Source of the DNA: Chrysochromulina tobinii
Lineage: Eukaryota
Direction of reading: 5' to 3'
Assembly (NCBI GenBank): GCA_001275005.1
Contig: JWZX01002320.1
Span: 1 to 34,223, forward strand
Length of the DNA: 34,223 nt
Every line of letters starts with the position of its first letter. Position 1 is the first letter of the stretch. This document shows positions 4,456 through 29,633 of the stretch, piece by piece. Made by a program: the position numbers and the translations under genes. The notes beneath the pieces were generated by a model. That model was not told the origin of the DNA. It saw nothing but the letters and a program-made list of their open reading frames with translations, and did no database searches.

Positions 4456-4515
4456 TCTCAATCTCAATCTCAATCTCAATCTCAATCTCAATCTCAATCT
4501 CAATCTCAATCTCAA
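4456..4515. repeat. (TCTCAA)n hexamer microsatellite, about 10 units
   Basis: Directly visible. Flanked by direct repeats GGCCGAGAGTCGTCTC at 4444-4459 and 4516-4531. Confidence 0.95.
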
Positions 4516-5235: not shown

Positions 5236-6132
5236 TCACGACGGCGCTCCGCCCTCCACCCCCGCTGGCCCTCCACCCCCCGGCGGCATGTCGTCGTATA
5301 CAGTGTGGATGCTCAGCCCGGTCTCTCGTCGAGCACCGCCGCCGCCCCCCCCCACGATCGTGTGGGTGGGCAGCTTGCCGCCCTTGCGCACGCCCTTTGG
5401 GGCGGCCCCCTTAGCACCAGTGCCGGGCGCAGCGGCGGCCGGGTCGACGACGGTCGCGCCATCGCGTAGCAGCAGCACGTCGGCGTCCCGCAGCTGCAGC
5501 GGGTGCGCGCCAATTTTGGGACAAGTTCGTATTTTGGGCTCGTCCCATTTTAGGGCGGCGACGAAGGCGGGAGTGAGGCTCTTCGCGCCCACCTGATGGC
5601 AGAGCCACACAAAGGCACTCAGCGGCACTCAGACGCACTCAGGCGACGAAGGCAGGAGTGAGGCTCACCGTCGGTGGCTTGGCGAGGGAGAGCCGGGTGC
5701 GCTCGACGCCACAGACGGCGCTCAGCGCGTCTACGAGCTGCTCGGTGCTCCAACTGGTCTGGGCGCACAGCGTACCTGATGAGGGAGGCAATCAGAGGTC
5801 ATTAGAGGCCATGAGAGGTCATTAGAGGTCATCAGGTGCTCCATCTCGTTTGAGGCACATGACGTACCGCCACGTCGCACGATAACCGTGCTCTGGCCAG
5901 ATGCCGGCAGCGGCGGGGCCGGCGGCGGCGGCGGGGCTGCCTTCGCGCTGGCGACCGTCGTGCCCGGGGGCAGGCGTGCATCGGCGCTTGATTCCGAGGG
6001 CAGCGGCGGAGGGGCGAGGGCGCCGTGCGGGGCGAGGGCGGCGCTCGGCTTCGCTCCAAGCGCCTGCCGTACGGCTGCTACAAAGTCGTCCTCGGTGTCG
6101 GCGGTCGGCGCGTCTGATCTCTCACTACTACT

Positions 6133-6164
<32 letters not shown>

Positions 6165-9100
6165 TTGCACCGCCGCCGCTAGCACCGCTGCTCGCACCCG
6201 CACCCTCCTCAGCGCCGGCGCTGCTGCCCAGCACGGCGCTGCTGCCCAGCAACTGCCACCGAATGAGCAATGCCTCTTCGGTGAGCGACTCGGCGTGGCT
6301 GAGCTCCTGCACGGCAATCTCCTTATCCTCGAAGCCGCCCGTCATCGCCTGGCGCACCTGATGAGGAAGGCAATCCGAGCTTATTAGCAGGGACATAGGA
6401 GTCCTCTCTTAATCAGAGGTCATCAGAGGCCATCCGACCAATCAGAGGCACTCACTGCGCACTGTCTTCGCATCACGGAGGAGTCCTCTCTTAATCAGAG
6501 GTCATCAGAGGCAGGCCCTCGCTGCGCACTGTCTTCGCATCACGGAGGAGCCCTCCTGTTCGTGCGCCAGAGCGCTTGAAGAGCCGCAATGCGCTCGCCG
6601 ACGTCGCCAAGCTCAACTGACCGTTGGCGCTCAGGGCGCTATAGAGGCGACGCTTGAGCTCGCCGATCTTGAGATTCTCGGAGATTGCGAGCTCGCAGCA
6701 CGCGTCTCCCGATCGAAGTTTGGTGGCGAGAGGGTCGGAACCACCAAACTCGGAGCCACGCTCCACCGCCGCGGGCGCCGTCGCGGGCGATGGTGGCTCA
6801 CCCGCATCGCCCCCCTCACCCCCCTCATCCCCCTCACCCCCCTTTCCGGCCGCCCCGGTGGATAGGATGCCACTCCCCGCGCCAGCGTGCGCCCGTTCGC
6901 ACAAAAAGGCTCTTACGAGGACCTCATCCTTACCTGATGAGGGAAGCAATCAGAGATGTCATTAAGGGCCATCATCCTCACCAAGGGGCGCGCCTCGCCT
7001 GATGAGGGAAGCAATCAGAGGTCATTAAGGGCCATCATCCTCACCAAGGGGCGCGCCTCGCCTGATGAGGGAAGCAATCAGAAGTCACTAAGGGCCATCA
7101 TCCTCACCAAGGGGCGCGCCTCGCTCGACGTACACCGATGAGCCATCAGTGAGCCCGGCACCCCCAGGCCCCGATCCGAGCGGCGTCCCCTCCTCGTTCT
7201 TGAGATGCGACCTGATGAGGGAGGCCATCCGAGGTCAGCTGAGGTCATCCGAGGTCATCTGAGGTCATCTGAGGTCATCCGAGGTCATCCGAAGTCATCC
7301 GAGGTCATCCGAAGTCATCCGAGGTCATCCGAGGTCATCAGTGGCAATTAGTGGCGATTACCCCTTGGCCGCCCGTCGAAGGCGCAGCTGGCCGAGCGCC
7401 GTCGTGGGCACACCGAGCCGGCGCGCAATCTCCGCCTTGAGCTCCGCGAGCGTCTGCCGCCCGTCAACGGTCACCGTGTGCGCTGCCGCGAGCGCTGTGA
7501 ACGTGTCCGGTTCGAGCGGCGCTGTGACGAATTCCAATGGGCCCTCAGCGTCACGGGTTACGTCAACGTCGACGCCCAGTGCGGCAGCGCCCTCCGCATC
7601 GATCGGCTCGGCAGCCCCGGGTGCGAGCGCCGTGTCGAGCGCATTGAACGTGATGGTCATTCGATGGCGGGCACTCTCGCGTCGTCGCAGCAGCTCGCTC
7701 GGCGCGTCCGCCGTCACAGCCGCCTCGATCCATAACTCGTCCCCGGGCCGCACGCGCAGCCCTCCAAGTGTACACGTGGCATCCGTCATAGCCGGGAGTG
7801 ACGAGAGGACTCCCTCCCCCTCCTCTCCCACCTCCTCGTTGTCGTCGTTGAGGATGCGCCGCATCTTGGACGGTGGCGGCGGCGCCGACGTGAGCAACGA
7901 CCACGACCCATCGCTCCCGATGCGCACGATCCGCTGTACAGGCGCCGCCACCCCCAAGCGAGCCTCCACGACGGCGCGCAGATCGGCGAGCGACGCGTGG
8001 TTTGAACGGCCGTTGGGCACGCACAGGAGCTGCACAGGCCCTTCGATGCCCTCGTCGTAGGGCAAGGCGTCGCTCAGCACGGCAGCGGCGGCGGTGCCGT
8101 TGCTGTCGTTGTTGTTGTTGTTGTTGGTGGTGCTGCTGCTGATCATGGTGCTACTGATGGTGCTCATGTTGCTTGGAGGGAGGGCAGTGCTGACGTCAAG
8201 ATCGCCGGCCACCGCGCTGCTGACGCTGCCGGCCCCAGCGCCGTGATGAGCACCGCCGCCTTCGGCCGCCGCGAGACGCATCCGCTCGAGCTCGGTGAAG
8301 GCGGGCGTCGGGACTTTGTCCGGTGCCGCCGCCCCCTCCGCAGCCCCCTCCGCCGCCGCCGCCGCCTCCACCTCTTGGGACGTCGGGCACGCCGTCGTGG
8401 GCACCGAGGGCGCCCAGCGGCGCACGCGTAGGTACAGATCGTCCGGCGTGGGGGCTGGCCACGTGGCAGCGGCGGTTTCGGCCGAGCGCCTTTCGAAGAG
8501 CACGGCCGCGCGGGGGGCGAGGCAGAGCGTCGAGAGTGTCTGCTTCGCCTCCGCATCGAGCTCCGAGTTCGTCAACGGCTGCTCGGGCGTACCGTGCAGC
8601 GGATCCCATCGGCGCAGGCGCACCTGATGAGGGAGGCAATCAGACCTCATTAGAGCCAATCAAGGACGTGCAGAGGATCCCATCGGCGCAGGCGCACCAG
8701 CTGGCCGCTGCGCACGCGCACGCTACCGGCCGCATCAGGTGGCGAGACGCTCGCGCCGTCGTGAGCACTCGCGCCGTCGTGAGCGCCGTCCGGCCGTGCG
8801 GCGACGTGTGAACTGACAGCCCCCCCGTGTGAATTGACAGCCCCCCCGGCTGCTGGAGCGGCTGCTGACGGTGGGCCCGTCGCCGGCGACGTGGCTAGCC
8901 GAGCTTGCGCGCTGAGGAGCCTGAGAGCCGCGTCCGCATGCGAGCGATCTCCGCCGAGCTCGAGGGCGAGCTTGACGAGATCCGGTTCCGTCAATGCATG
9001 CTTCGAGCTCAACGAGGCGAGCACCGCTGGGAGATCGGGCGCGAGATCGGGCGCGGGCGTCGTGTCGGCAGCGAGCGCGGACGCGCAGATCTGCGGCAGC

Positions 9101-11147
9101 TCCGCCGCGGGCGTGTCTGCATGCAGCTGGATCGTGACCTCGCGCGCGAGATCGTCCGCGGGCACGACCGTGAGGTGGACGATCATCGCCGCCTGCTGCT
9201 TCCACAAACGCACCTGCGCGGCCTCCGCCTCGTCCGCCTCAATCTCAGCCGCGAGCGGCGCGGGGGGCGAGGGCACCTGATGAGGGAGGCCATCAAATGT
9301 CATCAGAGGCGATCAGAGGTCATCAGAGGCAATCAGAGGTCATCAGAGGCAATCAGAGGTCATCAGAGGCAATTAGAAGTCATCAGAGGCAGTTCGGGGG
9401 CGAGGGCACACCTCCCCGCCCTCCCACGGGGACGTGCTCCCAGGCGCAATCAAAGGTCATCAGAGGCAATCAGAAGTCATCACCTCCCCGCCCTCCCACG
9501 GGGACGTGCTCCCGGGCGGCCGCCGCCGATACACGAGCAGGTACGCATTGCGCCCCGAGTCGAGTCCGCCACCCGCGGGGCAAGGTTCGCCATGACCTGC
9601 CGCACTCTCGACATCGGCTTCTGTCGCAGCGGTTACATTCGTGTCATTGAACTCGTGCCAGCTCGAGCCAGTGCCGCGGCGTAGTAATGCTGTGTAGTGC
9701 CCTCCCTGTGCCGAGCCGGCATGCATTAGCGCACCCACACAGTCATACCAAACCTCCTCGTCGGCCGCCGGAGCAGCGCCCACCGCGGCGCCCACCGCAG
9801 CGTCTGCCGCTGCCGCGTCTGCCGCTGCCGCGTCTACCGCTGCCGCACCGGCGCCGGCGCCACCGCTGCCGCCGCCGCCGCCAACGGCGCCGGCGACGTG
9901 CTTGACCGCCTCGGGTGGAATGGGCGGTTCGGCTACATACGGGCCTAGGTTGAGGCACAGGGGAAAGGCGACGCGGTGGTTGAGTTTCTTGCGACGTAAC
10001 GTGGCGAAGTCGAACGTGAAGCGCTTGAGCTGCAGCATGAGAAGGGGCGGTAGCTTCGAGGGCCGGACACCCTTGAGCGCGGGCACCTGATGAGGGAGGC
10101 GATCAGACGTCATTAGAGCCAATCAGAGGCTAATCAAGGGTCGGACGCCTCCTTGAGCGCGGGCACCTGATGAGGGAGGCAATCAGACGTCATTAGAGCC
10201 AATCAAGAGGAGCGCGGGCACCTTCTCGTTGCACACGTCGCATCGCCAGCAGTTGTCGCCGTCGAGCGTCTCCCACGCCGTGTACTCGCGCAGCGCCTGC
10301 TCAAGCGAGATCGCAAGAGATACGTCCAGCGCAAGGTCGCAGTACGCTTCCTCCCGCGTCGAGCGTCGTCCGCACCTGATGAGGGAGGCAATCAGACGTC
10401 ATTAGAGCCAATCAAGGTCGCAGTACGCTTCCTCCCTTGTCGAGCGTCGTCCGCACCTGATGAGGGAGGCAATCAGAGGCCATTCGAGCTAAACAGGGGC
10501 CACTCAGTACTTGAGGCATCGGAGCGTCGAGGTGAGCACCTGATGATGAGGGAGGCAATCAGAGGTCATTAGAGGCCATCAGAGATCATTAGAGCGCACT
10601 TGAGGCATCGGAGCGTCGAGGTGAGCATCCCTTCGAAGAGCTCGCGCTCGATGGCGACGCCGTACTTGGCCAGGGCCGTGAAGAGCACGCGGCACAGCTC
10701 CTGCACGTCGTGCTGCCGAAACGACTCGGCACGCGACCAGCCAAAGGAGGCCGTGAGCGAGCGCGTCGAGACGGCCTGGCACGACGTGAGCTGCAGTTGC
10801 GTGAAGAGTCGCGCGAGCTGGAGTGGCACGCACGCGTCCGCCGGGCCGTGCACGGCCTCGCCCTCGTACGAGAACGCGAACACCTCGCGCCGCACCTCGG
10901 GCAGGAGGAACAGCGCCTGGATCAGGCTGTTAAGGTAGCAGGTCGCGCCCTCGTTCGTAAGCCCACAGAAGGGCTGATCCTCGCGCCGCCCCTCGAACCA
11001 CGAAGCCGGGCGGCCCGTGCCCTTGTCGCGAGCGATGCGGACCGCGAGCAGGCGTGCAGCCTCCCTCGCCGTCGCCAGCGAAGCCTCGCGTGCTTCGCTC
11101 TCTCGCTCTGTGAGCGATTGTCCTCGCTCGGTGGGAGGAGCGCTCAT
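5236..11147 (-). CDS. Ubiquitin carboxyl-terminal hydrolase (USP/C19), USP47/USP40-like with ubiquitin-like domains; 10 exons
   Basis: Exons 11147-10600, 10375-10222, 10086-9484, 9276-8698, 8623-7362, 7211-7108, 6933-6530, 6357-5868, 5775-5669, 5592-5236. All junctions are GT-AG and phase-consistent. Cys box GLTNEGATCYLNSLIQALF, QHDVQELCRVLF, finger CxxC pairs (CLKC, CDVC), LQLKRF, His box MHAGSAQGGHY..WHEFND, NAYLLVYRR. UBL-like TLAELKAEIARRLGV. The C-terminal LRDADVLLLRD..RRETGLSIH resembles the USP47 tail. Alternative ATG at 11192. Confidence 0.9.
5593..5668 (-). other. USP intron 9 (family A-like; contains a copy of downstream exon sequence)
   Basis: GTGAGC...GCCATCAG. Internal GAGCCTCACTCCTGCCTTCGTCGCC matches exon 10 with 1 mismatch. 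Confidence 0.8.
5776..5867 (-). other. USP intron 8 (family A)
   Basis: GTACGT...CTCTGATTGCCTCCCTCATCAG. The 5' part is a decayed copy of the exon 9 start. Confidence 0.85.
6358..6529 (-). other. USP intron 7 (family A)
   Basis: GTGCGC...CCTTCCTCATCAG. Contains a copy of the exon 7 end (CTCCTCCGTGATGCGAAGACAGTGCGCAG). Confidence 0.8.
6934..7107 (-). other. USP intron 6 (family A; three tandem units)
   Basis: GTGAGG...CTTCCCTCATCAG occurs three times, separated by 17-nt copies of the exon 6 end. Confidence 0.85.
7212..7361 (-). other. USP intron 5 (family A; 10-nt satellite body)
   Basis: GTAATC...(GGATGACCTC)n...GCCTCCCTCATCAG. Splicing restores a UBL-like domain (RRAAKG|SHLKN). Confidence 0.85.
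8624..8697 (-). other. USP intron 4 (family A)
   Basis: Starts with a ~31-nt copy (1 mismatch) of the exon 5 start, GTGCGCCTGCGCCGATGGGATCC. Ends CTGATTGCCTCCCTCATCAG. Confidence 0.88.
9277..9483 (-). other. USP intron 3 (family A)
   Basis: GTGATG...GGCCTCCCTCATCAG. The body consists of CTCTGATGAC/CTCTGATTGC units plus a copy of the exon 3/exon 4 junction. Confidence 0.88.
10087..10221 (-). other. USP intron 2 (family A; two units)
   Basis: GTGCCCGCGCTC at the intron start equals the exon 3 start. Internal CATCAG|GTGCCC at 10167/10166. Splicing gives CNEK|VPALKG. Confidence 0.9.
10376..10599 (-). other. USP intron 1 (family A; three units)
   Basis: Splicing gives LRCLK-CGRRSTREEAYCDLALDV. 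Contains copies of both flanking exon ends. Confidence 0.9.
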
Positions 11148-11425
11148 GGTACGGTGCGTACCGACGCCAGGCCCGGGACGCAGCGCCGCCATCTCGTTGA
11201 CCTCCACAGCAGACTTCGTGCCGCTCCGCTTCCTCCTCCTCCTCAGCGTGACCCTTTTCGGCGCCGTCACTACGATTGCGGCCTCGGTGCGAGTCCGCCT
11301 CGCACGAAAATGGTCACGGTTTCGCGAAGGATTCGTCAAGAAGTTTTGGTGTGAAAATTAGAAGTTGGCCGCGCGCGGCTTCGACATGGTTTCGCCGCCA
11401 ACTTTGGGAAGCCCCTTCCCGGCCA

Positions 11426-11914
11426 ATGGGGTGTGCCGCGTCGACAAGCCCGCGGAAGCCGACGCCCGCGTCTCCACTCTTCCCCCCCACTCGACGCTCT
11501 GGAGACATAACGATGAAGAAGCAGCTGACCCCTAGCATCCTCAGCGGCCTCGGAGCTCCCTCGGGAGCGTTGCTCGATGAAATGAGCGTGCCCGACGCCC
11601 GTCCGACAGTCGATGGCATCACTGACGGAATCAGGAGTCCGCAGACGGAAGGAAAATCGCGTGCAGATGCATCAAATGGGTCTCCGCCATCAGGTGGCCT
11701 CCGTCTTACCTCGCTCGGCAACAGTCAGCGTGCATTGGTAGTAGCGATTGCGTCGGCACCTACAGCAGCGCCGGAAGCGATGCAGCAGGCTTCCCATGCA
11801 CAGCCGGCCGTCAGAGTACCGGCAGCAATGCCCGAGCGACCGGCCACGGACGAGTTGCAACTGCAGGATGCAGGGGTCGTGGACGACGGCGTGTCGTGTA
11901 TACGATGTGCGTAA
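11426..11914 (+). CDS. Hypothetical 162-aa protein with N-terminal MGCAAS acylation-like motif
   Basis: ATG at 11426 lies within ORF 11276-11914. An MGCxxS start is typical of N-myristoylated/palmitoylated proteins. Divergent from the USP gene. Confidence 0.55.
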   Translation: MGCAASTSPRKPTPASPLFPPTRRSGDITMKKQLTPSILSGLGAPSGALLDEMSVPDARPTVDGITDGIRSPQTEGKSRADASNGSPPSGGLRLTSLGNSQRALVVAIASAPTAAPEAMQQASHAQPAVRVPAAMPERPATDELQLQDAGVVDDGVSCIRCA

Positions 11915-12079
11915 GATGTCGGCACATGTTGGTTGTTGCAAACGAGTACGACGGTGGTTGCAAACCTAGTCCCACTACGACGCCGCTGTGCGTGTTCAAC
12001 CCACTCATCCCTTCCTCACCCCTAGCCTCTCAACACACTATAAAACTCAGCAGCGCTCCTAAACTAACACTCCTATTTC

Positions 12080-14521: not shown

Positions 14522-14573
<52 letters not shown>

Positions 14574-16357
14574 AGGAGCGCGAGCCCGGCGTGGGGCGGC
14601 ACATTGTCGCGGACTCGCGCTTCACCTCGCTACGCTTCCGCCTCGTCACGGAATGCGCGCCCGACACGGCGCCCGACCGCCCCCAGACCGACGCCGTGTC
14701 GGGCGCCGCGTCGGGCGCCGCGTCGGGCGGCGCGTCGCGGTGCCGCCCGCAGACCCGCCTCGCCCTCGGCTTGACGGCAGTGCTCCCAGGTCGCGTAGAG
14801 ACTGTGAACGTAGAGACTGTGAACGTGGCGTCCCATGCAGAGGCCACGGGGGGCGGTGCGGCGACAGGTTCGTCCAGCGGTAAACCCCGGCAAGCGATCG
14901 ACTGGCTCTCGCGCGTTTTTGGTGCGGACCGGTTGCATGCGGACGTCGCACGAGGGCAGGGGCGTCATTCACAGGGGCTTCATTCACAGGGGCTTCATTC
15001 ACAGGGGCTTCATGCCTGCCCTCTCGCGCGCCATTCAGTGCTTCGTCTCGAGTTTGCTGGTGCGACACCGACGGCGCATGAGGCTGCACTAGGCGCCATC
15101 TCCGCGGCCATCACCGCGGCCGGGGTGCCGCCCTTGCGTGTCTGGCCGTCGGCCTACGCGCCCGAGGGACAGCTGCACAGCGGTGGCCTGGTACGTGCCG
15201 AGTGGACGCTGCCGCCCCCCGCATGCAAGTGCTCACCACGGCGCCCTCCCTCCCCACAGGTACGTGCCGAGTGGACGCTGCCGCCGCCCCAAGCTGAGCC
15301 GATCAGCTTCGCATACACCGCGTGGCCTGCCGCGGCCCTCGGCGCGCACACTGCACACCACGGCGCGCACACGGCCCACCACGGCGCGCATACTGCCCAC
15401 CACGGCGCGCACACTGCCCATCACGGCGCGCATACTGCCCATCACGGCGCGCCAACGGTCTCTTTGGGGCGGGCGGAGGGCCTGCCGGAGCCCATCTCGG
15501 CGCGCACTCCGGTCGGCATGCAACCGCCCGTCACGGCGCGTCGTCCGGTCGGCATGCACGCGCCCATCACGGCGCGTCGTCTGGTCGCGGGCGATGGGGA
15601 ACGGAAGAGCTCGCTGCTGCTCGAGCTCACGTCGTCTTGGGCGCGGCCCGTGCGCGTCGACGTCGTTGATGAGCTCCCTCATTGGGTGCAACCCTACTGG
15701 CACACGCTGCGCTGCTGGCGCAACGGCACCTCAGTCGGCCTCGACGAGGCGCTCTCGAGATGGCGCATCGATCCCGCGTCCGCGCCCGCACCGCCTCTAC
15801 CCAGGGCCATCGAACTCTATTCGGCCGACGCCGTGGCTACCCGTGCCCCGCATCAGTTCCGGTGGTCGGCAGACCTACCGGCCGGGCCGACGAGTCTAGT
15901 GGTCGCGTTCGACATCCTCAAGCCCGTCCGACATATCGACTCGATGCCGGCAGATGCCTCGCGCGGTCTCGACATTGGGTCGGCCGCGGTGGCCTACAGC
16001 GAGGTTGCGCGCGCTGCGGCCGGAGCGGCCGGAGCGCCCGACACGGCGCCGACGCCCGACGAGCCGCCGCTGACGAAACTGGCGATGACGAAATTGACGC
16101 CCGACACGGCGCTGCCGCAGCCGCAGATGCTGCTCTTCTCGAACGCGGTGGTTGTAATGCTCCCGATCGCGGACGACAGCATGCCATACAATGTGATCGC
16201 CGTCAGCTCGACGCTCATCGCTCTCTTCGTCGGCCAGATGTTCAACCTCTTGATGCGCCCGCTCACGGGGCGCGGGAAAGCCAAAGCCAAAGCGGAGCGC
16301 TTGGCGGAGCGGCGGGAGCGAGGACGAGGTGCGCCGCTCAAAACATGTTTTGTGTAA
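13529..16357 (+). CDS. PIGT: GPI transamidase component PIG-T/Gpi16; exons 13529-15190 and 15260-16357
   Basis: Signal peptide-like MSPGLLLPLLLMSPAAEA. Family motifs FEEELTLRPL, LFP, VHLSLSSGRW, APAGA..WAW, LSSLLCA, VCTENV..WL.L.PC, DASRGLDI and LPIADDSMPYNVIAVSST, followed by a TM helix. Confidence 0.9.
15191..15259 (+). other. PIG-T intron (family B; 69 nt, in frame)
   Basis: GTACGTGCCGAGTGGACGCTGCCGCC (copy of the downstream exon) followed by GCATGCAAGTGCTCACCACGGCGCCCTCCCTCCCCACAG. Confidence 0.8.
15341..15451 (+). repeat. Five 21-nt tandem repeats encoding GAHTAHH in PIG-T
   Basis: Directly visible in DNA and translation. Confidence 0.9.
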
Positions 16358-16691: not shown

Positions 16692-19600
16692 ATGGCGGCG
16701 GCCGCTCCACGGGAGGCCAGGAGCGGCCCACCGGCTCCGGTTCAAGGGACGCCCACGTCTGCTCCTCCTCCGCAGCCCCCTGCTCCGCCGCCCGTGGTCC
16801 CAAACGGGACGCCGCCCGACCTCGCCCTCGCCTTCGCCGAGCTGGACGTGCCTGGCGGCCCTGCTTCCCTGCCTCCGTCGCACCGCCACTCGATGAACCT
16901 GGGATTCGCGAGAGAGGTGGCGCGCCTTCACGTGGGTGCGCCCGTCATGCGTGCCGCCGAGGCGAATCGACGCTTGGTGCATGAGCTCGCCCAACGCGCC
17001 TCCGCCGCGCCCTCTTCCCTTTCGTCGTTGGTGGAGATTTGCCGCCAGTACTTGAGCTGCTGTGCTCAGGACTTGGCCCCTCTCGCGTGCGGGCTTGAGG
17101 CGCCATGCCGCGAGCTGCTCAGCTACGCCAGCACGATCGGCGCGGAGGACGCTGCCAGGCTCGAAGCCGACTTTCGCGCTTCCGTGAGCGCCGCGCGGCT
17201 TGAATCCCCGCCCATCCCCAGCCCCGCTCCCCCGTCACCCTCCCCCCCTCGTATGCCTGCCCATCCCCGCCCCCCACCCCCGCGACGAGGTCGTCTTTGG
17301 CTGCATCACCGCCTGTCCTGCCTGTTTCGTGCAGGTCGAGCTCAACGTCCACGGCTGCGCCGTCTCGCGCGCGGCCGCGCTGAACGACGAGTTTGTCGCC
17401 TACCTTCGGCTCGTCTACCCTCCCGTCTCCGGCGAGTGCCTCTTCTCTCCGGGCGCCGAGGCCTTGGACGCGCACTGCGAAGGCTACCTCCGGCTGGCGT
17501 GCGACCTCCGGGCGAGCTTTGAAGGCGACTCCCCAGCAGCCTCTGCCCCGGCCCTGCCCGACTGCGGCTTCGAGGAGCGCTGCCGCAGCTACCTGCATCA
17601 CGCGGATCCGACCTCGGCGACGCGGCTGGCCACAGCCACGGCGGCCGAAGCGGGCCCACCGCCTGTTGCCCCGGCCGCCGCCCCGCACCCTGCCGCCGCA
17701 TCTTCTCCTCTGCCCCCCGATCCGGACGCCCAACGCGCGTCACGGCAGCGATGGGCAGCGGCGCTCGCCCACCTTCGTCCGCGTCTGAGCGGCGGCGCTT
17801 CAGCCCCCGACAGTGCAGGCGCCTTCTCCTTCTCGCTCCCACCGTCGCGTCAGCCCTCGGGCCGAGCATCGTGCCCGCCGTCGCGCCAGCCTAGTGAGGC
17901 CGCACGCCAGCCGATGGCGGCCGAGACCGAGGCGGAGGTGCCGCGCGAGATGTGCCCCGTGTGCGACTGCGAGCCGGCCGACTTCATCCCATCGTGCGGC
18001 CACGCCACGTGCTCCGACTGCGCCATTCGGATGCTGCGCGCAGCGTGCGACGACCAGAGGTCGGCCCTGGACGCGAGCGGCTTTGCGTGTGTGCAGCGGT
18101 GCGAGCGCCGCATCGGCCCCAACGACGTGGAGCCGCTCCTCACAGACCCCGCCAGCAGCCGTCTGAGCGCGATCCGGGGTGGCGCGCCCGATCCTGGTGC
18201 GCAGTTTGGCGGGCGGGGGGCTGATGGAGCGCTCGGGCTGAGCTACGAGGAGTATGAGCGCTTCCGCCAGTTTGTGCTTCAGGCGTCCATCCCCGTCGAC
18301 GAGCGTGTCCACTGCCCCAGGTGCGAGCGGGCCTCGGCGCGGGCCGATGTCACCACCGATGGCGGCGGCGGCGGCACGCGCGGGCTGCGCTGCCCACACT
18401 GCCAGCACTGCTGGCGCCCGGACGCGACGGACGCGCAGGGCCCGTCCACGACGGCGACGGACGCGTACATTGGCGCCACCAGCCGGCAGTGCCCCAACTG
18501 CGACGTGCCGGTCACCAAGTGGCACGGCCACAGCTGCCACCACATCTCGCCGCAGACCAACGGCTGCCCCAACTGCCACCAGCACTTTTGCTATGTGTGC
18601 CTCCACAAGCACGGCCGGCCCGGCGAGCGCGCGTTCCACAGCGAATGCGCCCACCACCAAACCTTTTGCCGATTGGACGACATCGGCCTTCACCTCGGCA
18701 TGGAGCCGTACCCGCACGACGTGCGCTGCGGCTGCCCCATTTGCCCCGACTGTCGGAGGGGCGTGCCGTGCGAGCTGTGCGACGGGGGCTGCGTGGTGTG
18801 CCGCGGCCTCGTGCCCCCGGGGCCGACGGAGCTCGCAACGCCGGCGGCCGCGTGCACGGTCGCGGGCTGCGTGGTGCACGACGAGGCCGCGGCGGCCAGG
18901 TGCCGGAGGCGCGAGGCGGAGCTGCAGTGGGCGGAGCGGCAGCGGCCGACGCAGGGTGCTGAGGTGTACCATGCCGTCGTCCCGGAGGGCGTCACGACGC
19001 TCGAGGCAGGGTACTTTCGTGGGCGGCGGGATCTACGGTCGGTGGCGCTGCCGGCGAGCCTGACGCGCATCGGCGATCGCGCGTTTCAAGGCTTCCACTC
19101 GCTCGCACTGGGGGAGCTGCCCGCGTCCCTCACGAGCATCGGCGATGACGCCTTCGCCGGGTGCTCCTCCCTCGCGCTGAGGGAGCTGCCCGCGTCCCTC
19201 ACGAGCATCGGCGATGACGCCTTCTACGGGTGCTCCTCCCTCGCGCTGAGGGAGCTGCCCGCGTCCCTCACGAGCATCGGCGGTGGCGCCTTCTTTGAGT
19301 GCTCCTCCCTCGCGCTGAGGGAGCTGCCCGCGTCCCTCACGAGCATCGGCGATCGCGCCTTCAACGGGTGCTCCTCCCTCGCGCTGAGGGAGCTGCCCGC
19401 GTCCCTCACGAGCATCGGCGATGGCGCCTTTGACGGGTGCTCCTCCCTCGCGCTGGGAGAGCTGCCCGCGTCCCTCATAAACGTCGGCGATTGGGCCTTC
19501 CGCGGGTGCTCTTCCCTCGCGCTGAGGGAGCTGCCCGCGTCCCTCACGAGCATCGGCGATGGCGCCTTTGACGGGTGCTCCTCCCTCGCGCTGGGAGAGC

Positions 19601-21333: not shown

Positions 21334-22639
21334 TCACGCCGAGCCGGCGCCTTCACACCGCCGCCTGTTCACACCGCCGCCTGTTCGTAGCGCGAACCCG
21401 ACCGAGGTCCATCCGTGCGCATCGAGCTCGATGTTGGTGGTGACTGCGGCGGTGACGCTAGCGCTGCCGTCGGCTTTGAGGCGAGAGAAGAGCGAGACGT
21501 ACGAGCGCTCATACACGAGCGCCGTCGGGTGCACCGTCACCTGTGGGGAAGAGGCAGCGCCGTGGTGAGCGCATACATGCAGCTAGACGTACGCGCGCTC
21601 AAACACGAGCGCCGTCGGGTGCACCGCCCCTCGCAATCAGCGGCCATCAGGGGCAATCAGCGCCGTCGGGCGCGCGGTCACCTCCGCACCCAGCGCGTCA
21701 TCGTCCACGCAAAGCGCCGTGCAGACGACGTCCAATCGCTGTCGAAAGGACTGGCCGTTGCCGAGAAGCCGCCCAATGCCGGTGACACACAGGGCGTTCG
21801 AGCCCATCGCCTGAGCGCCAGCGCCCTCAAAGAGGCGTGCAAACTGCGCCTCCGTCGTGTGCGCATACATCTCGAGCACGATCACGCCGACATTGTTCAC
21901 CACGCGCGGCTGCCCGTCGAAGACGACTGAGAAGGCCACGCACAGGGGCGCGTCCGCTCCGCCCTTGCCAAGGGCGAGCATGGCATCCTTGAGCATGGCG
22001 AAGTAGGCTGCGAAGCGCCGGTTGCTGCCCTCGGCCGCGCGCACCGTGTACCACTTGAGCAGGTGCTGGTTTGGGCCGCTGGGCACTTCGTGCATTGGCT
22101 TCCTCATGAAGCGCAGCGTGTGGGGGAGGCGTGCGCACGGCACAGAGCAAGCCGTAGAGGGGGCTCGAGGGTGGGAGCTTACGTGGCGGGGTGCCGAGCA
22201 TCGACTCGATGCATCGGAGGAACATGGAGCCACCCAAGTAGCGGTGGTCGGCGTCAAGCTCGACGAGCAGCCGATCGGGGTCCCCACGCACTCGCATCGC
22301 GTCGTGCTTTCCAGCGAGCACATCGGCAACGGTCTCGATGCCCTTGAAGCGAGGGCTCGCGACCGCGATCCACTCGACCACTTGGTCGGTCCGCCTCGAG
22401 TCCAAATTGCGAAAGTATTGCTCGTAATCCTTCAGGCTTGGCATCACGAAGCGGGAAGTCAGCGTGCGCTCGCCCGCGCCGTAGCGCTTCGCATCCTCGA
22501 GCTTGGCCTGGTGGAACTCGTCCTCGATGGTCTGTGACTTGACCTGAAGGCCCAGGGCGGCACGCAGCACCACGAACATCGGAGACACGATAGCCTGATG
22601 GAGCACCCGTATCCACTGTAGGATCGTGGTCAACACCAT
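21334..22639 (-). CDS. Hypothetical protein, possibly CoA-dependent acyltransferase/condensation-like fold; apparent frameshift near 22130 (pseudogene or assembly error); intron 21541-21681
   Basis: ATG at 22639. Frame 1 is protein-like to ..LYGLLCAVR; frame 2 is protein-like from RLPHTLRFMRKP. Motifs LDADHRYLGG and VAFSVVFD..PRVVNNVGVI. Last exon 21540-21334 is in phase. Confidence 0.6.
21541..21681 (-). other. Hybrid family A/B intron
   Basis: GTGACC + short exon copy + CTGATTGCCCCTGATGGCCGCTGATTG (A core) + ~40-nt copy of the downstream exon + GCATGTATGCGCTCACCACGGCGCTGCCTCTTCCCCACAG (B end). Confidence 0.85.
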
Positions 22640-22832
22640 TTGTGAGTCCAAAAATACATTCGTTTGAAAGCAATTTGGATTGACTTGTCTTGATTTGCCT
22701 CCTGAACTTCCGCCGTGGGCGATCTTTGCCGCGTGACGCCCAAAGTTACGCGGCTCCTGTAAAGCTTATTCATAGAGGAGGGTGCAGGAACATGTACCGG
22801 TAGCACCGATCGGCGCAGCTCGTTGACGACAC

Positions 22833-24204
22833 ATGGTTCTCGGAGCCAGTGCGCTCTTCCTTCTGCTCGAGTACCTGCAATTCTATCGTGACACGCTTCA
22901 AAACCGGCATTATCTCAAATATCCCAACAACGCCGACGTCGATGGCTCCATAGCCTTTCATACCTGGCCACCCGGGGCGAATGCGATGACGATGGCTGGC
23001 CAGAGGCGACTTGACCACACCGTTGCGATCATCGCAACGGCGATCGCCGATGGCATCCCAGGACATTTCATCGAGACGGGCGTGTGGCGTGGTGGTATGT
23101 CCTTCATGGCCGCGAAGGCGCTCGAGGTGCTTGCGACCATTGAGACGGAGCGTACTGGAGTGGCAACGCCTCCGCGCCTGGTGTACCTGTGCGACAGCTT
23201 CGCCGGAATTCCGGAGCAGACATCGTACGGTCGCGGCCGAGACCATGTGCACCCCGCCTCGGGCCTGGATCGCAAAGCGCACGCATTCGGCATCCTGAAC
23301 GACAACTCGGTGGACAGGGTGCGAGAGGATGCTGCGAGGGTGAATCTCGGGCCGACGCTACGCTGGGTGCCCGGCTATTTCAACGAGTCGTTGCCGCGGT
23401 TGGCGCGCGAAGAGCCCTCGCTCACCTTCCTCACGATTCGACTCGACGGCGATGCGTATTGGTCCACCTACGAGGCGCTCACCGTGCTCTACCCGAGGCT
23501 CTCGCCAGGTGCGGACCGCTGATGACGTCTGATTGCGTGGATCACATCTGATGGCCACTGATTGCATCTCTACCCGCCGCCCTTGGCAGGCGGGTTCGTC
23601 ATCATCGACGACTTTACAGATTGGACTACCTGCCGCGAGGCGGTCGACAGGTACCGCGCCGAGCAGCGCATCGCTGATGACCACTGATTGCGTTGATGAC
23701 ATCTGATTGCGCGAGGCGGTCGACAGGTACCGCGCCGAGCAGCGCATCACAGCGCCGGTCGTACTCGTGCCGCACAAGCGAAACGAGGTCGTGCGGGGCG
23801 CCTATTGGCGGAAGCCCAGGGAAGGATCCAAATTAGGCAAAGGACAACCCGAGCATTCCAAATTAGGGTCACCCCCGCCGCTGTGCGTCGGGGATGGCGG
23901 GCACGGAGCTGTCCGGGTACCTGGCAGCTACAACCCTTCGAACGCGGTGCCAGTCGGACCGCCTGCAAGCGTGTGGAGCTCTCCAGCAACGAACTCGTGG
24001 AAGCTCGAGCAGTACGTGCCGCCTGCGCAGATCTACATGTGCACGAAGAGTGAGGCCGAGGAGGCGCTCGAGACGATCGACAAGCCGGCTCCAACGGCCG
24101 ACGCTCAGGAGAGCGAAGTAGACAGGCGCCGAAGGCAAAAGCTTCAACTGCAGAGCGCAGCGTTGCGTGGAAGCAGCAAGAGCGTGGAGCTGCGCGCCTT
24201 GTAG
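22833..24204 (+). CDS. TylF/MycF/NovP-family (macrocin-type) SAM-dependent O-methyltransferase; exons 22833-23508, 23590-23650, 23727-24204
   Basis: Motifs WP..AMTM.G..RL, IPGHFIETGVWRGG, VYLCDSFAGIP, VPGYFNESLP, IRLDGDAYWSTYEALTVLYPRLSPG|GFVIIDD, CREAVDRYR, GAYWRK. Hydrophobic N-terminus. Confidence 0.92.
23509..23589 (+). other. TylF-like gene intron 1 (family A-like core)
   Basis: GTGCGG..CTGATGACGTCTGATTG..CTGATGGCCACTGATTG..TTGGCAG. Splicing restores LSPGGFVIIDD. Confidence 0.88.
23651..23726 (+). other. TylF-like gene intron 2 (both splice sites derived from a 39-nt exon duplication)
   Basis: Perfect direct repeats at 23634-23672 and 23710-23748, each containing CAG|GTA, flank a 37-nt CTGAT-rich core. 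Confidence 0.9.
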
Positions 24205-24417
24205 GGTCACCTTCGTGGGATGGCACAGACCGCTGGACAACACAAGCGACCTCGGTTCTCGCACTCTCTCTTTAGAGAGTCATTCGTCGCTGCGGAATTG
24301 ACCCGTCTTTTCCACATGTTACCTACTCAATTGGACCAGAATCAGTTGGACCGACATCAATGGTATAGGACAGCACATTGTTCACAGTTTCGGTCAATTC
24401 ACACTCGACGTTTTCCG

Positions 24418-26448
24418 ATGATGTTGCTCGTCATTGAGGTCTGCCTCAGCTCCTGGCGTACAGCGGGAGGCCTTGCCAAGCCCTTCCAGCGCATGGGCAG
24501 CACTCCCGTTGATGACGTGGAGTCGAGCTCGCTGGCTGCTCTTCCAACGTACACCGTGGATGGGTTGCCGCGTTTGCGCTTTGCGCGAGAGCTCTTATCC
24601 GCGGATACCGACGTGCTCCAGGAGCTGATCTGTGAGGAGGCTAGCTTTTGGAGCTTGCCGCTGTCCAAGACGCTGCTGCCGCGCCATGCTTTCCTGCGCG
24701 CCCGAGGGCTTCCACACGGATCCCACTTGCTGCGTGACCATCGACACGGGCTGCAGCAGCTCTTGCTTCGCCCGCAGTCAGACGCGCAGTTCGCCACCGC
24801 CGTCGCCAATCTTTCGAGTCCTGGGGTCCGGCCCTCAGAGCTGTGCCTCGACTTTGCCTCCTTTGCCAGCCGATTCCGAAAGGGTGGCTTCGACGCGGCA
24901 CGTGCGGGCGATACGGCCGTGCTCGAGGCCCTGCTTGCGCACGGCTGGTGTGCTCGCACCGCTAGGGACAAGCGCGGTGCCTCGGCGCTCCACTACGCAG
25001 CTGGGCACGGCCATGTCGAGTGCTGCGCGCTGCTCTGTGCGGCGGGCCTCGAGGTGGACGATCGAGCTCAAGACGGCGCGACGCCTCTGCACTGGGCGGT
25101 TGCGGGAATGACCTCAAGGGGCAACCCTCGAGATCGTGCTCACGACGGCGCTCCCCGTGCTGACGACCGACAAGGGCGGGACAGCGCGGGTCCAAATGGT
25201 TTCGGGACCGGCGGCCACTTAGGGATGGCCAAATGGCTCGTGGGCCGTGGAGCGGATGTGGGCGCGCAGACCGTCGATGGGAACAGTATCCTGCACTGGT
25301 GCGCGTGGGCAGGGACGCTCGAAGTTCTGACGTGGCTCACCGACCATATTAGGCAGCTGCAGCGGTCAGGTCTCGCCATGCACGGCGGCGGAACAAGTAC
25401 CACCAGCGACGGGTCCTGCTCGCTCAGCGGGGCGTCCCCTTCCAAATTAGACAAGAGGATGTCCGATTCTCTGAGTGTGCACGCGCTCAATCGCAACGGC
25501 TGCAGTGCGGCACACTGGGCTGCATCTGGCGGCGGGCTCGAGGTCTGCCAATGGCTCGCTGAAGAGCTCGAGCTCGACTTCTCGTTGCCTAATTTGGAAG
25601 GGAACACCCCGCTCACCAAGGCCATTGAGCATGGACGAGAGGAGATTGTGCGTGGATCGCCACTGATCGCCCATGAGTGCCACAGCTAATTGCCACTGAT
25701 GGCCACAGATGGCCACCGATTGCCACTGATTGCCACTGATTGCCACTGATCGCCCATGAGTGCCACAGCTGACGGCCACTGTTGGCCACTGATGGCCACC
25801 GATTTCCACTGATTGCCAATGATGCCAATGATTGCCACTAATTGCCACTGATTGCCACAGCTGATGGCCTCTGGCGGCCACTGATGAGTGCAGCTGAGTG
25901 CGGCTGAGTGCGCTGGCTCCTGATGACCTCTGATGACCTCTAATTGCCATCCTCATCAGGTGCGCTGGCTCCTGGTGAGCGGCAGTTGCGAGCCTACGCT
26001 CGCTGAGGCGGCTGGCTATGCGGCGCGGCTTGCCGCCCGGCATGCGGCCGAGGACACCACAGATCGCATCTCCGAGATGATGCAGAGCTATTTGCTCGCA
26101 CAGCATTATCTGACGCAGCAGCAGCAGCAGGAGGCAACGCCAATGCCGGGTGCGGACGACGCACCGCCAGATCTTGCGGAGATGACACCACCTGCCGATA
26201 ACAAGGCGCGTGAGGGCACGCGCGCGCCCGATACGGCTCCGAGGCACGCGCGCGCGCCCGATACGGCGCCCAGCGAGACGCTCGTGCGCCTCATTGACGA
26301 GGCTCTGAGGCACGAGCGCGCACGCAGTGTGGTGGCCGAGGAGCGAGCTGCGAGGCTCGAGGCCCAGCTGGCGCACGTGAGCAGGCAGCTCTTCGAGGCA
26401 CAGGCCAAGGCCATTGAGCTCCTGGAGCGCAGCACCAGTAGTAAGTAG
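24418..26448 (+). CDS. Ankyrin-repeat protein with C-terminal coiled coil; exons 24418-25647 and 25960-26448
   Basis: ANK motifs GASALHYAAGHGH, GATPLHWAV, GNSILHWCAWAG, GCSAAHWAASGG, GNTPLTKAIEHGREEI|VRWLL. The frame is open from ATG 24220, so the start is uncertain. Confidence 0.88.
25648..25959 (+). other. Ankyrin gene intron (family A; expanded CCACTGATTG-type array)
   Basis: GTGCGT...CTCTAATTGCCATCCTCATCAG. Internal copy GTGCGCTGGCTCCTG of the downstream exon start near 25908. Confidence 0.88.
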
Positions 26449-26698
26449 AAGAATCCAAATGTAAAGTCTAGCATCAAGCATGTGGTCGGGTGTTCGTCGA
26501 GGCGGGTCAGTTTCTGCATGTAGTCTGCGAAGAAGACGTGTGATTTGCGTTCACGCTTGTGTCGGCGTCAAGTCAAATCCATGCATAAACAACAGACAAC
26601 CCCTTTAGACTTGAAACACGACTTGACTTCACATGAAGGGTCGCGCGCTGTCGCGGGCTCGCAGAAGGGACGCAATACGAATCATGAAACCGCATGGG

Positions 26699-29633
26699 AT
26701 GTCATGGAGCTTGCCGACGCTGCTGCATGTCGTGTGCATGCTCCTATCATGGAGGCTAACTACCGAACAATATGCACAGAACCTGACATGCTGCACTTCA
26801 CAGAATTCGGAGTCTGGGCGCATCGGACGGTGCGACCATCTGGCACAGCACAATGGCTGCCGAACCGATTGGATCCGAAATCGCTGCCCTGTAGCGTGTG
26901 GAAATTGCAGCGTTTGCGACCCAACCAGGCGCGAGATTTACCAAAAGTTATACCTGCGGACGGCCCGCATGCGGGCCAAGGCTGCGCCGAGCGAGGTAGC
27001 GTACACCGAGAACATGAGCGTGCCATTGGATGAGGCCCGGAAGATGGCGATTCGCACGGGCAAGGAGCTGTCACGGCGCGCGCGCCGCCTGCTAGCCGAA
27101 GAAGTGATACGCGGGCTCTCGTTCTCGCACTACGTGGTCGATCCAGCGTTCGACATGCCGCTCACGCAGCCCATCTTCGACTTCGTTCGCTTTCGCCGCG
27201 GCCGCGCCGATCAGATCCGATGGCCTCGGTAATGGGAGGCCTGATTGCGTCCTATCAGATCCAATCGCTAATGGGAGGCCTGATTGTGTCCGATCAGATC
27301 CGAGATGGTGACGGGAGGCCTGATTGCGTCTGAGTGCCTCTGGAGGCGTAGACGTGCCGTTGAGTGCACCCTGATGACGTCTGATTGTCTCCCTCATCAG
27401 GCACGGCATCTCGTTGGGGGGCGTGGACGTGATGCGCAAGCTGGCTCAGCTGGTTGATGACATCCTCGAGCGTGGCATACGAGGGAGCTTTGTGGAAGCG
27501 GGCGCGTGGAAGGGCGCCAACGGCATCCTGGTGCGCAAATTGTTCGACGCCGCTAGCGACGTGGCCGACCAAATGCGCAAGGTCTACTCCCTCGACACAT
27601 TTGCCTGGTTCCCGAACAAGACGAACAGCACGTACTATGCGGATCGCGGCATCGTCGAGGGCTTCTACGCGTCCGGCCGCTGGCATCCTAACTTTTATGC
27701 CGACCTGCGCAAGGTGAAGCAGATCCACACCCAGTTCGGGATCAATCTCCAATACGGCGGCCTGAAGCTACTCGATGGAGACTTGGAGCAGCTCGCACCC
27801 GAGCTTGCCATCTCGCTACAGAGCGACGCCGAGAAGATTGCGCTGCTCGTCGTAGACACGAACCACTACAAGGGTACCTGGGAGACGCTGAAGGCACTCT
27901 ACGCCCATGTGGCACTCGGCGGCTATGTCCTTCTCGGCGACTACGGCTCGCCTCCGTCCCGGCGCGCGGCCGACGACTTCCGCGGCTGCATGGGCATCGA
28001 GTCGGAGCTGGTCTTCTTCTTGCCGCACGGCTCTCCGCACGGAAGGCACGGCAAGGCATACTGGAAGAAGACGGAGGAGCTGCCGCCTTCGAAGCGCTTG
28101 AACGCGCGGTGCGAAGCTATGCCTTCGTTGACGGTTGGGTTCGGTGCGAGCCAAGACGTGTCCTTCGTTGTCGCGCACGAGACCAAATTAGGCGAGGGTA
28201 AGGACTTCCCGCCCGTCATGCGGCTGGCACCCCTTACAGTCTCCGCGCGCCCAACAGCGCGCGAAGCCTTCAGCCGCGCAGCCAGATCGTGGAGCAGCGC
28301 CAAGGGTTCGTCATGTTTCGTCGACGTGCTGCTGTACGGCCTCATCCGATCGGACGCGATGCTCGAGTACACGACGCCGACGCTCCGCTCGCATGGGCTC
28401 GAGCCGTTGGAGGGCCACGGCTGCCTGCACGTGCATGCCTACTGCCTCGAGGCGCGTTGCAACATGTCCACTGCGAGCACGTTGCTACGACGCCTCGGAG
28501 CTGCGTCGTTGAACGTAACCGCCGCACTGCCACCCCCCGCACTGCTTGGGAAGCGCATCGAACTCGAGTGGAACGCGCGGGACCCGTCGTTGGATGCGAT
28601 AGCGCGGATGATCGCGAGGGATGCTCGCAAGCGACGCAGCGAAACCATCCATCGGTGGCGCTGTGGCGTGCACAGCCTGTCGCAGGCCTGGGCCGCTGCG
28701 CGACTGCACACGCCCGCCAAATACGGCGAGGCGCCCTCTGGCCTGGTGCTGGTCTGCCGGATCGATGCCGCCTTTGTGGCGAGACCAGCACCGATAGGGC
28801 ACCTTCCTAATATGGATCTGATCGATCACCTGTGGGCATCAGATGCGTGGGAGGCGCACGAGCGTCACACGGTTTTCGTGCCCGAGTTTCAGCACTATGG
28901 CGGTCTCAACGACCGTTTCGTCTTCGGCTCGGCAGCGGCTGTGGCCATGCTGATCTCCGCTCGCGAGGAGCAATCTCGACTGGGGGAGACTTTTGCGGAG
29001 CAAGCCATGTGCTCCGCCGTATTGGAACACAACCTGTCGGTGCGCACCACGACGATCAGTTTCGTACGCGTGCGCGACGACAACTCCATCCCACCCGTTG
29101 ATAGTGAGACGGTCCTGTCCAACGCCTCAGCGCTCGGCACAACGCCCGATACAAGGTGGTGGAACGGGCACAGCAACGGCATGTGCCTCAGCTGCGTGGG
29201 CCTCGCAGGCCGCTGCTTAGGAAGCGAAGAAGCGGCGGCTTACGGCCTCAACCCATACCACTCCTTCTGCCCCGGCCAACTGTGCCAGCTTCTCACGTCC
29301 ATGAACAGCCGCCTAGGGGCTCTCGTTGACAGAGCTCAGCTGGCCGGTCTTCACACGTTGGCCCGTTCACGGCCGGCCATGTTCGCAGCCTTCAATCGGC
29401 GAATCGCGCGCGGCACCAAGCGGACCGAGTCCATGTTAGGCAAGTCCAGCCCTCGGAGCCGCCGAGGGAAGATGAGGCAGCCCGAGAGGTCGACGCAGCC
29501 TAGCGACGCTCAAGTCGCGGACGCCAAGAAAGCACAGGCAGAGCTGGACGCCCTAGTGCACGCGGATCTCGAGCTCATAAACCAAGCCGAGCGGGAGAGC
29601 CGCCGTCGGTCTGTTCTGAGACCCATCTTCTGA
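26699..29633 (+). CDS. Secreted/membrane protein: ShK-like domain + TylF/MycF-like O-methyltransferase + putative glycosyltransferase-like domain; exons 26699-27228 and 27401-29633
   Basis: Hydrophobic N-terminus. ShK-like C..LAQHNGC.TDWIRNRCPVACGNC. TylF-like WPR|HGISLGG, IRGSFVEAGAWKG, VYSLDTF, IALLVVDTNHYKGT..LKALY..VALGGYVLLGDY, AYWKK. Second domain VLLYGLIRS..VLVCRIDAAF..VFVP..YGGLNDRFVFG. Start uncertain (26633, 26684 or 26699). Confidence 0.82.
27229..27400 (+). other. Family A intron in the ShK-TylF gene
   Basis: GTAATG...CTGATTGTCTCCCTCATCAG. Contains repeated copies of the upstream exon end (ATCAGATCC) and GGAGGCGTAGACGTG, similar to the downstream exon. Confidence 0.88.

Follow-up and report, generated by a model that had tools for sequence, protein, structure and literature searches.

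Likely ongoing intron creation by copying of existing intron ends in the haptophyte Chrysochromulina tobinii

The origin of new spliceosomal introns is a long-standing question, and large intron gains are mostly attributed to transposons with fixed ends. Introners of Symbiodinium and Polarella (classes 4/5 and 6/8/10) bring their own 3' splice site, while their 5' site is drawn from the duplicated target (bioRxiv 10.1101/2020.10.14.339549, PMC9860276). Reverse splicing has been proposed as the way in which Micromonas introners and fungal introner-like elements multiply (PMC4540971). One published listing gives 0 introner families for C. tobinii (PMC12130899), and the low-complexity filter of the 2022 introner survey could discard families of the form described here, for which our literature search found no description. 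We analyzed a 34,223-nt stretch of C. tobinii DNA (contig JWZX01002320.1, hereafter the window) together with metagenome loci and relatives' open reading frames (ORFs). It harbors a repeated intron family whose spread appears to be under way, the duplications being long and of variable length and the templates in part local.

A first-pass annotation of the window had reported 14 introns in 5 genes sharing a core of ~10-nt units (family A), plus one intron with only a second core type (family B); independent re-reading returned the same set. Nine core introns lie in a ubiquitin C-terminal hydrolase (USP) gene, two in a first TylF-like gene, and one each in the gene at 21.5 kb, an ankyrin gene and a second TylF-like gene, while the lone family-B intron sits in a Gpi16 gene. 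All nine USP introns are of the core type, as annotated, and the placement of 9/14 core introns in one gene has a binomial P of 1.4e-4, uncorrected for choice of the richest gene. The window contains 14 occurrences of the motif CCTCATCAG, 12 on the minus strand and 2 on the plus strand, versus 0.45 expected (100 simulated sequences), and 10/14 core introns end with it, in agreement with the annotated "most". The intron plan is a copy of the next 2–55 exon bases followed by a core of 10-nt units with the end CCTCCCTCATCAG.

The copies that the annotation quoted were recovered: exact ones of 12 nt at 10221 and 22 nt at 23651, and at 8697 one of 31 nt that has a single mismatch and an exact stretch of 23 nt. 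Its rule that the following exon always starts with G, usually GT, holds within the window (G 15/15, GT 13/15); outside it, "always" fails, with G in 123/129 exon starts (GT 97, GC 19, GA 5, GG 2). The proposal that the donor GT is duplicated target needs qualification: in 8/14 the exact donor copy is 1–5 nt or lacking, and longer copies sit within the intron or are decayed. Similarly, the core supplies the AG in most introns, but not in three: those at 23509 and 23651 end in an upstream-exon copy, and that at 21541 in a family-B end. Duplications of fixed length were absent, as claimed, with exact copies of 1–23 nt in the window. Terminal inverted repeats had also been reported absent. A 7-bp inverted pair (CTGATGA/TCATCAG) does occur, but it is not a true terminal inverted repeat because core 5' starts are scattered and folding z-scores are unremarkable in 8/9 introns, which leaves the idea of a hairpin or terminal-repeat element unsupported. 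The scattered 5' joins likewise give no support to a copying stop at the branch point.

The USP gene (5236..11147, minus strand, Pfam UCH) comprises 10 exons and, with its 9 introns removed in silico, encodes 1,535 codons without an internal stop. Its junctions were confirmed as predicted, all nine introns being seen as GT..AG joints in RNA contigs (8/9 in run X14, 4/9 in X16, intron 4 solely in X16 at depth 3). Of the 15 RNA joints listed, the six beyond these nine were non-canonical or repeat-to-repeat. All USP introns lie on the minus strand; introns 2, 6, 8 and 9 were called from sequence plus an RNA joint, and runs are given for the others. Intron 1 (10376..10599, 224 nt; X14 and X16) has three cores and a 5-nt donor copy, and its interior holds copies of about 31 nt from the upstream exon and about 43 nt from the downstream exon; its first core shows a 51-nt match to intron 8 at 96% and is absent from three relatives' ORFs (P0189, P0199, P0201). 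Intron 2 (10087..10221, 135 nt) combines a 12-nt donor copy with two cores and shares 41 identical nt with the end of intron 1. Intron 3 (9277..9483, 207 nt; X14) carries a 17-nt exon copy, a unit array and an extra 5' core, which is accompanied by an approximately 33-nt direct repeat across the donor and is missing in 10 of the 15 relatives listed. The polymorphic intron 4 (8624..8697, 74 nt; X16) consists of a 31-nt copy and a 43-nt core, the latter identical to the intron 1 end at 41/42 nt. Intron 5 (7212..7361, 150 nt; X14) has a 2-nt copy and a long unit array; it is common to the sister lineage, and ORFs from both lineages terminate at its stop. Intron 6 (6934..7107, 174 nt) repeats three times a 63-bp unit made of 17 nt of upstream exon plus intron, and intron 7 (6358..6529, 172 nt; X14 and X16) has a 6-nt donor copy and an internal copy of the upstream exon end. 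Intron 8 (5776..5867, 92 nt) is a decayed copy (about 33 nt) plus core, and intron 9 (5593..5668, 76 nt) has the end GCCATCAG. A metagenome locus of the same gene (L120), with exons 98–100% identical to those of USP, contains an extra 47-nt segment at intron 8 and, at intron 9, a 19-nt direct repeat across the donor that encloses an additional 56-nt core. Presence or absence of an extra core distinguishes alleles at introns 1, 3, 8 and 9. At 10541, reads of three runs lack 3 nt of the window, so its CATCATCAG there probably reflects a minor allele or an error of assembly. Core introns also corrupt gene calls: ORFs begin in a core or run through in-frame inserts.

The remaining window introns are predicted from sequence. 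That of Gpi16 (15191..15259, plus strand, 69 nt, family B) is in frame without a stop and has an exon copy of about 29 nt. The intron at 21541..21681 (minus strand) reads as exon copy, family-A core, exon copy and family-B end. In the first TylF-like gene (plus strand), one intron (23509..23589) has a core without its own AG and takes its acceptor from a decayed upstream-exon copy, and the other (23651..23726) is a 37-nt core in a 39-nt direct repeat (exact copies of 22 nt and 17 nt) that holds AG|GT and gives both splice sites. The ankyrin intron (25648..25959, plus strand, 312 nt) has two core types with a 15-nt exon copy between them, and that of the second TylF-like gene (27229..27400, plus strand, 172 nt) has tandem donor-region copies and a core. 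An Rfam search of the window returned 0 matches.

Beyond the window, an estimated 2,300 or so stored stretches contain the core, and we surveyed 136 metagenome loci. An upstream copy of the exon start (10–55 nt) was found at 73/150 terminal acceptors (49%) versus 0.3% in a swap control; the other 77 had no copy scoring at least 10. Clean non-core AG|GT controls had a copy in 23/361 cases (6%), mostly minisatellites or other introns. Family B behaved in the same way despite its different sequence (exon copies at 11/21 acceptors). Across 57 sites, copy length (11–51 nt) and core length (26–254 nt) were both continuous, and core starts ranged from −5 to +150 nt. Microhomology of at least 3 nt was present at the 5' join in 5 of the 19 scorable sites among these 57 (about 0.4 expected), and direct repeats at intron ends exceeded background, as in Daphnia-type break repair. 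The summed DNA depth of the core bin (65,276 versus about 38), although not a copy number, suggests very many core copies. The core pattern had 0 matches in viral contigs and 0 in prokaryote genomes.

Presence and absence were called from translated genomic ORFs of relatives, that is, at the protein level rather than from DNA, and three USP sites proved polymorphic. Intron 4 is missing in 15/15 sister-lineage and 2/51 own-lineage ORFs. Site X (7994..8024, minus strand; empty target CT|GTGCGTG) is filled in 17/24 own-lineage and 0/14 sister-lineage ORFs by a 10-codon copy and a 20-codon core, doubled in P0109. Site Y (9175..9213, minus strand; empty target CAG|GTGCG) is filled in 8/37 own-lineage and 11/13 sister-lineage ORFs by a 13-codon copy and a 13-codon core. 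Complete copy plus core was thus observed at both sites, and in the young polymorphic inserts a single core is flanked by copies of 31, about 30, 39 and 19 nt. Since site X is empty in 14/14 and intron 4 absent in 15/15 sister ORFs, gain is favored; empty alleles can also come from deletion between repeats or assembly collapse. The filled and empty sites likely reflect ongoing intron creation by copying of existing intron ends, not a known transposon, and some of the copied ends likely come from the same gene. Rather than a single long switching run, the arrays that alternate flank and core seem to record several events in succession at the same site, with tandem re-duplication added. Two metagenome loci (L002 and L004) have all introns in common and differ solely in array length; another candidate presence/absence pair (L039 and L092) was rejected, its upstream sequences being unrelated.

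Core variants bear on the origin of templates. CTAATGACGTCTGAT occurs three times in USP introns and, among the 136 loci, solely in L120, from the same gene. Private 14-mers, tested by label shuffles on 153/298 clusters, were common to 11/141 same-group pairs (group = gene or contig) versus 1.9 expected (1,000 shuffles), to 7/105 versus 1.6 without the window, and to 8/96 versus 1.7 in culture-type contigs. At another locus (L097), two consecutive introns have a common 42-nt core and differing flank copies. Local copying is an enrichment and not a rule, because 130/141 same-group pairs have no private word in common and, among the sharing pairs, one (L023) is a single place read on both strands and another links genes 18 kb apart. 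Overall k-mer Jaccard similarity, with noise clusters included, was lower for same-group pairs, not higher. For the core at site X, no source is visible within the window's gene, and the match of the first intron 1 core to intron 8 rules out that templates are always upstream. Judged from these similarities, the template would in part be an intron of the same gene; same-gene similarity could instead reflect later gene conversion.

The first-pass annotation had proposed templated synthesis with template switching, which we infer to be the best fit, splicing, polymorphic sites and independent contigs all agreeing. We lean towards a model in which introns arise by repair synthesis at a staggered break that copies the 3' end of an existing intron, with splicing selecting the survivors. 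Filling of the stagger would create the direct repeat; the broken end would prime on the 3' end of an intron already present, which in part is likely to belong to the same gene; copying would mostly span 30–70 nt, with slippage in 10-nt units; and microhomology would mediate rejoining. Selection would likely retain only inserts that are spliced out exactly. An exon insert would be viable if the repeat begins with GT or GC, the left copy then acting as donor and the core providing a branch-like CTGAT and the AG, or if the repeat contains AG|GT, whereas an insert within or at the edge of an existing intron would be viable anywhere. AG-less cores do persist where the repeat provides the AG (23651, L120). 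Each new intron would be template and target again, so that introns would cluster in few genes and form nested arrays. Were the mechanism DNA-based and blind to sequence, some captured exon pieces would be expected; none from elsewhere in the window was found within its 15 introns. If host repair drives gain, introns can multiply without a transposon enzyme. A bolder reading, which we advance tentatively as possible rather than probable, is a transposon-free replicator, in which 3' splice-site modules would self-copy through host repair on neighboring introns or pre-mRNA, each gene breeding its own lineage; if so, a cultured alga would allow intron gain to be followed as it happens. With filled and empty alleles present both in lakes and in cultures, the rate, the template and the enzyme of such gain are open to direct tests.

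Target-primed reverse transcription yields a fixed 3' end with variable 5' end and duplication length, and the family, which is also inserted in sense orientation, largely fits this pattern. A non-LTR enzyme encoded elsewhere could nick the target and reverse-transcribe intron or pre-mRNA 3' ends, leaving 5'-truncated, SINE-like inserts, and RNA tethered at its own gene would account for local sharing. L1 target duplications are 7–20 nt, however, and many copies here are longer; some cores stop mid-unit with short overlaps and not at AG (again 23651 and L120), neither poly-A nor a fixed tail is present, and no reverse transcriptase or transposase was found among 21 window ORFs, although an autonomous retroelement or a transposase may be encoded elsewhere in the genome. 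We consider this route rather unlikely, even though about 5% of classified introner families derive from non-LTR elements (PMC12130899). Only a slim chance is left for a MITE-type introner with a short fixed duplication whose longer flank copies stem from later tandem duplication. The 7-bp inverted pair, donor copies that are often 2–6 nt, the 4-bp duplications of marine Chrysochromulina introners (PMC9860276) and genuine tandem re-duplication (intron 6; P0109, P0226) would suit it, but the young inserts already have long copies round one core, core starts show no fixed end, family B does the same with another sequence, and the published Chrysochromulina family bears the 5' site, the opposite of the family here.

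It is also very unlikely that these are old introns whose 3' ends were homogenized by gene conversion and slippage and whose splice sites were spanned by tandem duplications, with empty alleles representing losses by recombination between repeats. Introns 3 and 5 are common to the sister lineage, site Y is polymorphic in both lineages, nested arrays do expand by re-duplication, and direct repeats permit exact deletion; yet duplication by itself could not bring a core into a core-free exon, and the sister ORFs uniformly lack the site X fill and intron 4. Positions conserved in distant species, which the annotation had named as evidence for old introns, were not observed: at introns 1 and 2, 17 to 18 distant USP relatives continue without interruption, intron 3 is also read through, and some relatives read through introns 5–7. 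Short-read assemblers mis-join or collapse repeats, and repeats of 31–39 nt are collapsible; two features could be read in this way, the window's surplus of 3 nt at 10541 and the end of a DNA contig at 9204, the point at which a filled site Y would form a branch. That the duplications are assembly artefacts, a concern already raised in the annotation, is nonetheless extremely improbable, given RNA joints for all nine USP introns, DNA contigs spanning introns 4 and 9 unbroken and without difference, copies in independent short-read contigs, and filled and empty states recurring across many assemblies from two sources.

By broad definition the family is introner-like, with similar introns at unrelated sites, precise splicing (USP 9/9) and presence/absence (protein level), yet it lacks a fixed duplication and a fixed end. 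By the criteria of PMC9860276, which ask for similarity up to both splice boundaries and for sequence that is not of low complexity, it would not qualify, the 5' part being a site-specific flank copy and the core a 10-nt array. Like the Symbiodinium and Polarella introners, it is a repeated family with the AG from the element, the donor from the first duplication copy, and exact removal; in those introners the duplications are fixed at 4 or 8 nt and inverted repeats are present, whereas here copies are 2–55 nt, the 5' end is unfixed, and the body is a slipping 10-nt array with partly gene-local variants. The introners of Chrysochromulina sp. from Tara genomes (PMC9860276 Fig. 2C) share a haptophyte host, the lack of terminal inverted repeats and one splice site from the duplication, but have a 4-bp duplication, bear the 5' site and co-opt the 3' site. 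Micromonas introners and fungal introner-like elements (PMC4540971) resemble it in sense orientation, presence/absence and predicted insertion clustering; reverse splicing inserts a whole intron cleanly, however, and here no whole-intron insertion without duplication was seen, only the 3' part recurring, with flank duplication. In the AGGT tandem duplication model of Rogers (reviewed in PMC3443670), the counterpart is the intron at 23651–23726, which takes both splice sites from duplicated AG|GT, and two metagenome loci (L009, L038) contain introns built of exon-derived repeats; most sites here instead gain a foreign core giving the AG, and a target AG is dispensable (site X, CT|GT). The staggered-break introns of Daphnia pulex (PMC4202315) share polymorphic gains, flanking direct repeats, recurrent events within young introns and parallel gains at one site. 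Their repeats are 4–12 bp and the insert source is mostly unknown, whereas the family here has longer repeats and, as filler, a spliceable intron end that its members share.

The window is eukaryotic, GC-rich DNA whose sequence occurs in runs from freshwater samples and mixed cultures, and the nearest named relatives of its USP protein (gene at 5236–11147, − strand) are the haptophytes Prymnesium parvum and Isochrysis galbana; its source is probably a member of the freshwater Chrysochromulina tobinii/parva group. The word CCTCATCAG is present in 14 copies versus 0.45 expected, and reading frames returned the same introns that the first-pass annotation had listed, 14 of family A in five genes and one of family B (two core sequence types). 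Once its nine introns are removed, USP has a coding length of 4,608 nt (1,535 codons) with 0 internal stops, and its product is colinear with homologues over the exon junctions; stops are present in 9/9 introns, and in all three frames for 8/9. The proposed removal of these introns was borne out by RNA contigs, which joined 9/9 USP introns at GT..AG (8/9 in run X14, 4/9 in X16; intron 4, 8624–8697, in X16 alone), and non-intron joints accounted for 6 of the best 15 of 16 RNA joints. The RNA-confirmed set is these nine; the six further window introns are predicted from sequence.

Directly downstream of the family-B intron, a Gpi16 exon carries a family-B-like word five times in frame (AHHGAHT; 15353–15450, + strand), possibly as exonised core copies, and USP exons contain similar words at positions 8784, 8766 and 8251. 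The frame shifts over a pyrimidine-rich stretch starting GTAAG, which offers no correctly framed AG (22182–22120, − strand), a sequence error or non-canonical intron. It also shifts, with no core, between one gene's first part and its 1,184-codon Cys-rich and BspA leucine-rich-repeat ORF (17188–17335, + strand), an error or ordinary intron. An intergenic (CAATCT)n microsatellite (4461–4515) lies between the copies of a ~17-nt direct repeat, a repeat-insert-repeat layout with no core. One X14 RNA contig omits 275 nt of GCC-rich exon with non-canonical ends (5910–6186), a strain deletion or artefact, and three bases at 10541 are missing in X12, X14 and X15 contigs.

Scanning metagenomes with an exact 20-mer recovered at least 136 core-bearing loci, with an estimated total of ~2,300 stretches. 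After de-duplication, 150 terminal acceptors were scored (129 family A, 21 family B), and the claimed copy of the exon start within the intron recurred: in 73/150 a copy scoring ≥10 lay upstream and was anchored to the first exon base (+1), compared with 0.3% when exon starts were swapped and 23/361 at AG|GT sites without a core. Across 57 family-A sites, the nearest copy measured 11–51 nt and the core 26–254 nt, and unit spacing was chiefly 10–12 nt. L009 (−, near 327), L038 (−, near 1315) and L012 (near 2895) contain apparent introns that lack family A/B cores and consist of tandem repeats, exon-derived or otherwise.

ORFs from unspliced contigs open with core peptide (MTSDCLPHQ) and terminate at stops within introns, and therefore report the DNA state. 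We compared 81 distinct sequences among the matches listed (≤15 per cluster), which are not independent genomes, counting intron 4 from both its sides. Among these matches, intron 4 was missing in 15/15 ORFs of the sister lineage and 2/51 of the own lineage, the two groups of close USP relatives. Two exon positions without an intron in the window were filled in some relatives listed: site X (8024) in 17/24 own-lineage and 0/14 sister ORFs, by a 10-codon copy and 20-codon core, and site Y (9213) in 8/37 and 11/13, respectively, the own-lineage insert combining a copy and a core of 13 codons each. Both lineages have introns 3 and 5. Extra cores inside existing introns also segregate: intron 1 lacks its first core in 3/13 scorable relatives, intron 3 its 5' core in 10/15, and L120 has an additional 56-nt core within a 19-nt repeat in intron 9 and 47 additional nt in intron 8. 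Three TylF-like ORFs (P0148, P0150, P0152) start with an acceptor-like peptide, PPHPQ, inside the window's exon 1, a possible further intron polymorphism. The introns are real, spliced, widespread and recently active.

Introns 1, 2 and 4 have a core stretch of 41–42 nt in common, a 51-nt match links intron 8 to the first core of intron 1, and among the 136 loci the 15-mer CTAATGACGTCTGAT is confined to this USP gene (window and L120 extra segments). In a set of 91 groups comprising 153 core clusters, 11/141 same-group pairs had a group-private 14-mer in common (shuffles: mean 1.9, maximum 8), one of the 11 being an artefact. An excess persisted with the window excluded (7/105; 2 of 1,000 shuffles) and in culture-type contigs (8/96; 0 of 1,000); the majority of same-group pairs have no private word in common. 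By eye, a distinct core variant characterises each of L097, L082/L083, L070/L071, L036, L024 and L014. The 5' join and core overlapped by ≥3 nt at 5/19 scorable sites (~0.4 expected).

The data fit repeat-core-repeat insertion with variable lengths of both repeat and core and variable core ends. We lean towards an origin by templated synthesis at staggered breaks, since filling such a break would create repeat-core-repeat in one step; the GT bias would then be due to splicing, and AG-less cores would survive where splicing signals come from the repeat or an existing intron. Captured distant exon pieces were found in 0 of 15 window introns, and closely placed opposite-strand cores in only 2/136 loci (L113 300–519 and L117 368–476, back to back), both of which count against a sequence-blind DNA process. 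A retrotransposon enzyme working on intron RNA is a less probable source, differing from break repair mainly in enzyme and template. A replicator free of any transposon is plausible, at somewhat less than even odds.

Old introns altered by conversion and loss, the reading under which distant relatives would keep these positions, are unlikely: relatives at 40–60% identity read through intron 1 in 18/18 and intron 2 in 17/18 cases, and none had core peptide at its ends; some of these sequences may not be genomic, though P0018 sits on a 68.7-kb contig. A MITE followed by later duplication seems similarly unlikely. Artefact is highly improbable; the suspicion of misassembly is answered for introns 4 and 9, at contig level, by unbroken X12 DNA contigs. 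An X12 DNA contig stops at 9204, the exact branch point of a 31-mer graph if the 39-nt site Y repeat is duplicated; the sample may hold a filled site Y allele, or the window assembly may have collapsed the repeat.

As excerpted, PMC9860276 describes Chrysochromulina sp. introners with an element-borne 5' site and 4-bp duplications, and a survey filter removing low-complexity families; the C. tobinii entry in the accessible part of PMC12130899 gives 0 introner families. Partial texts report introner duplications fixed at 4 or 8 nt (bioRxiv 10.1101/2020.10.14.339549) and Daphnia intron-gain repeats of 4–12 bp (PMC4202315; see also extracts of PMC3443670, PMC4540971, PMC4580454, PMC8469720 and PMC11282704). 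We found no earlier description of these introns in a literature search covering few subscription journals, and supplements may list them. The window introns behave like introners, yet they are not members of the TIR/MITE introners and fall short of the introner survey definition.
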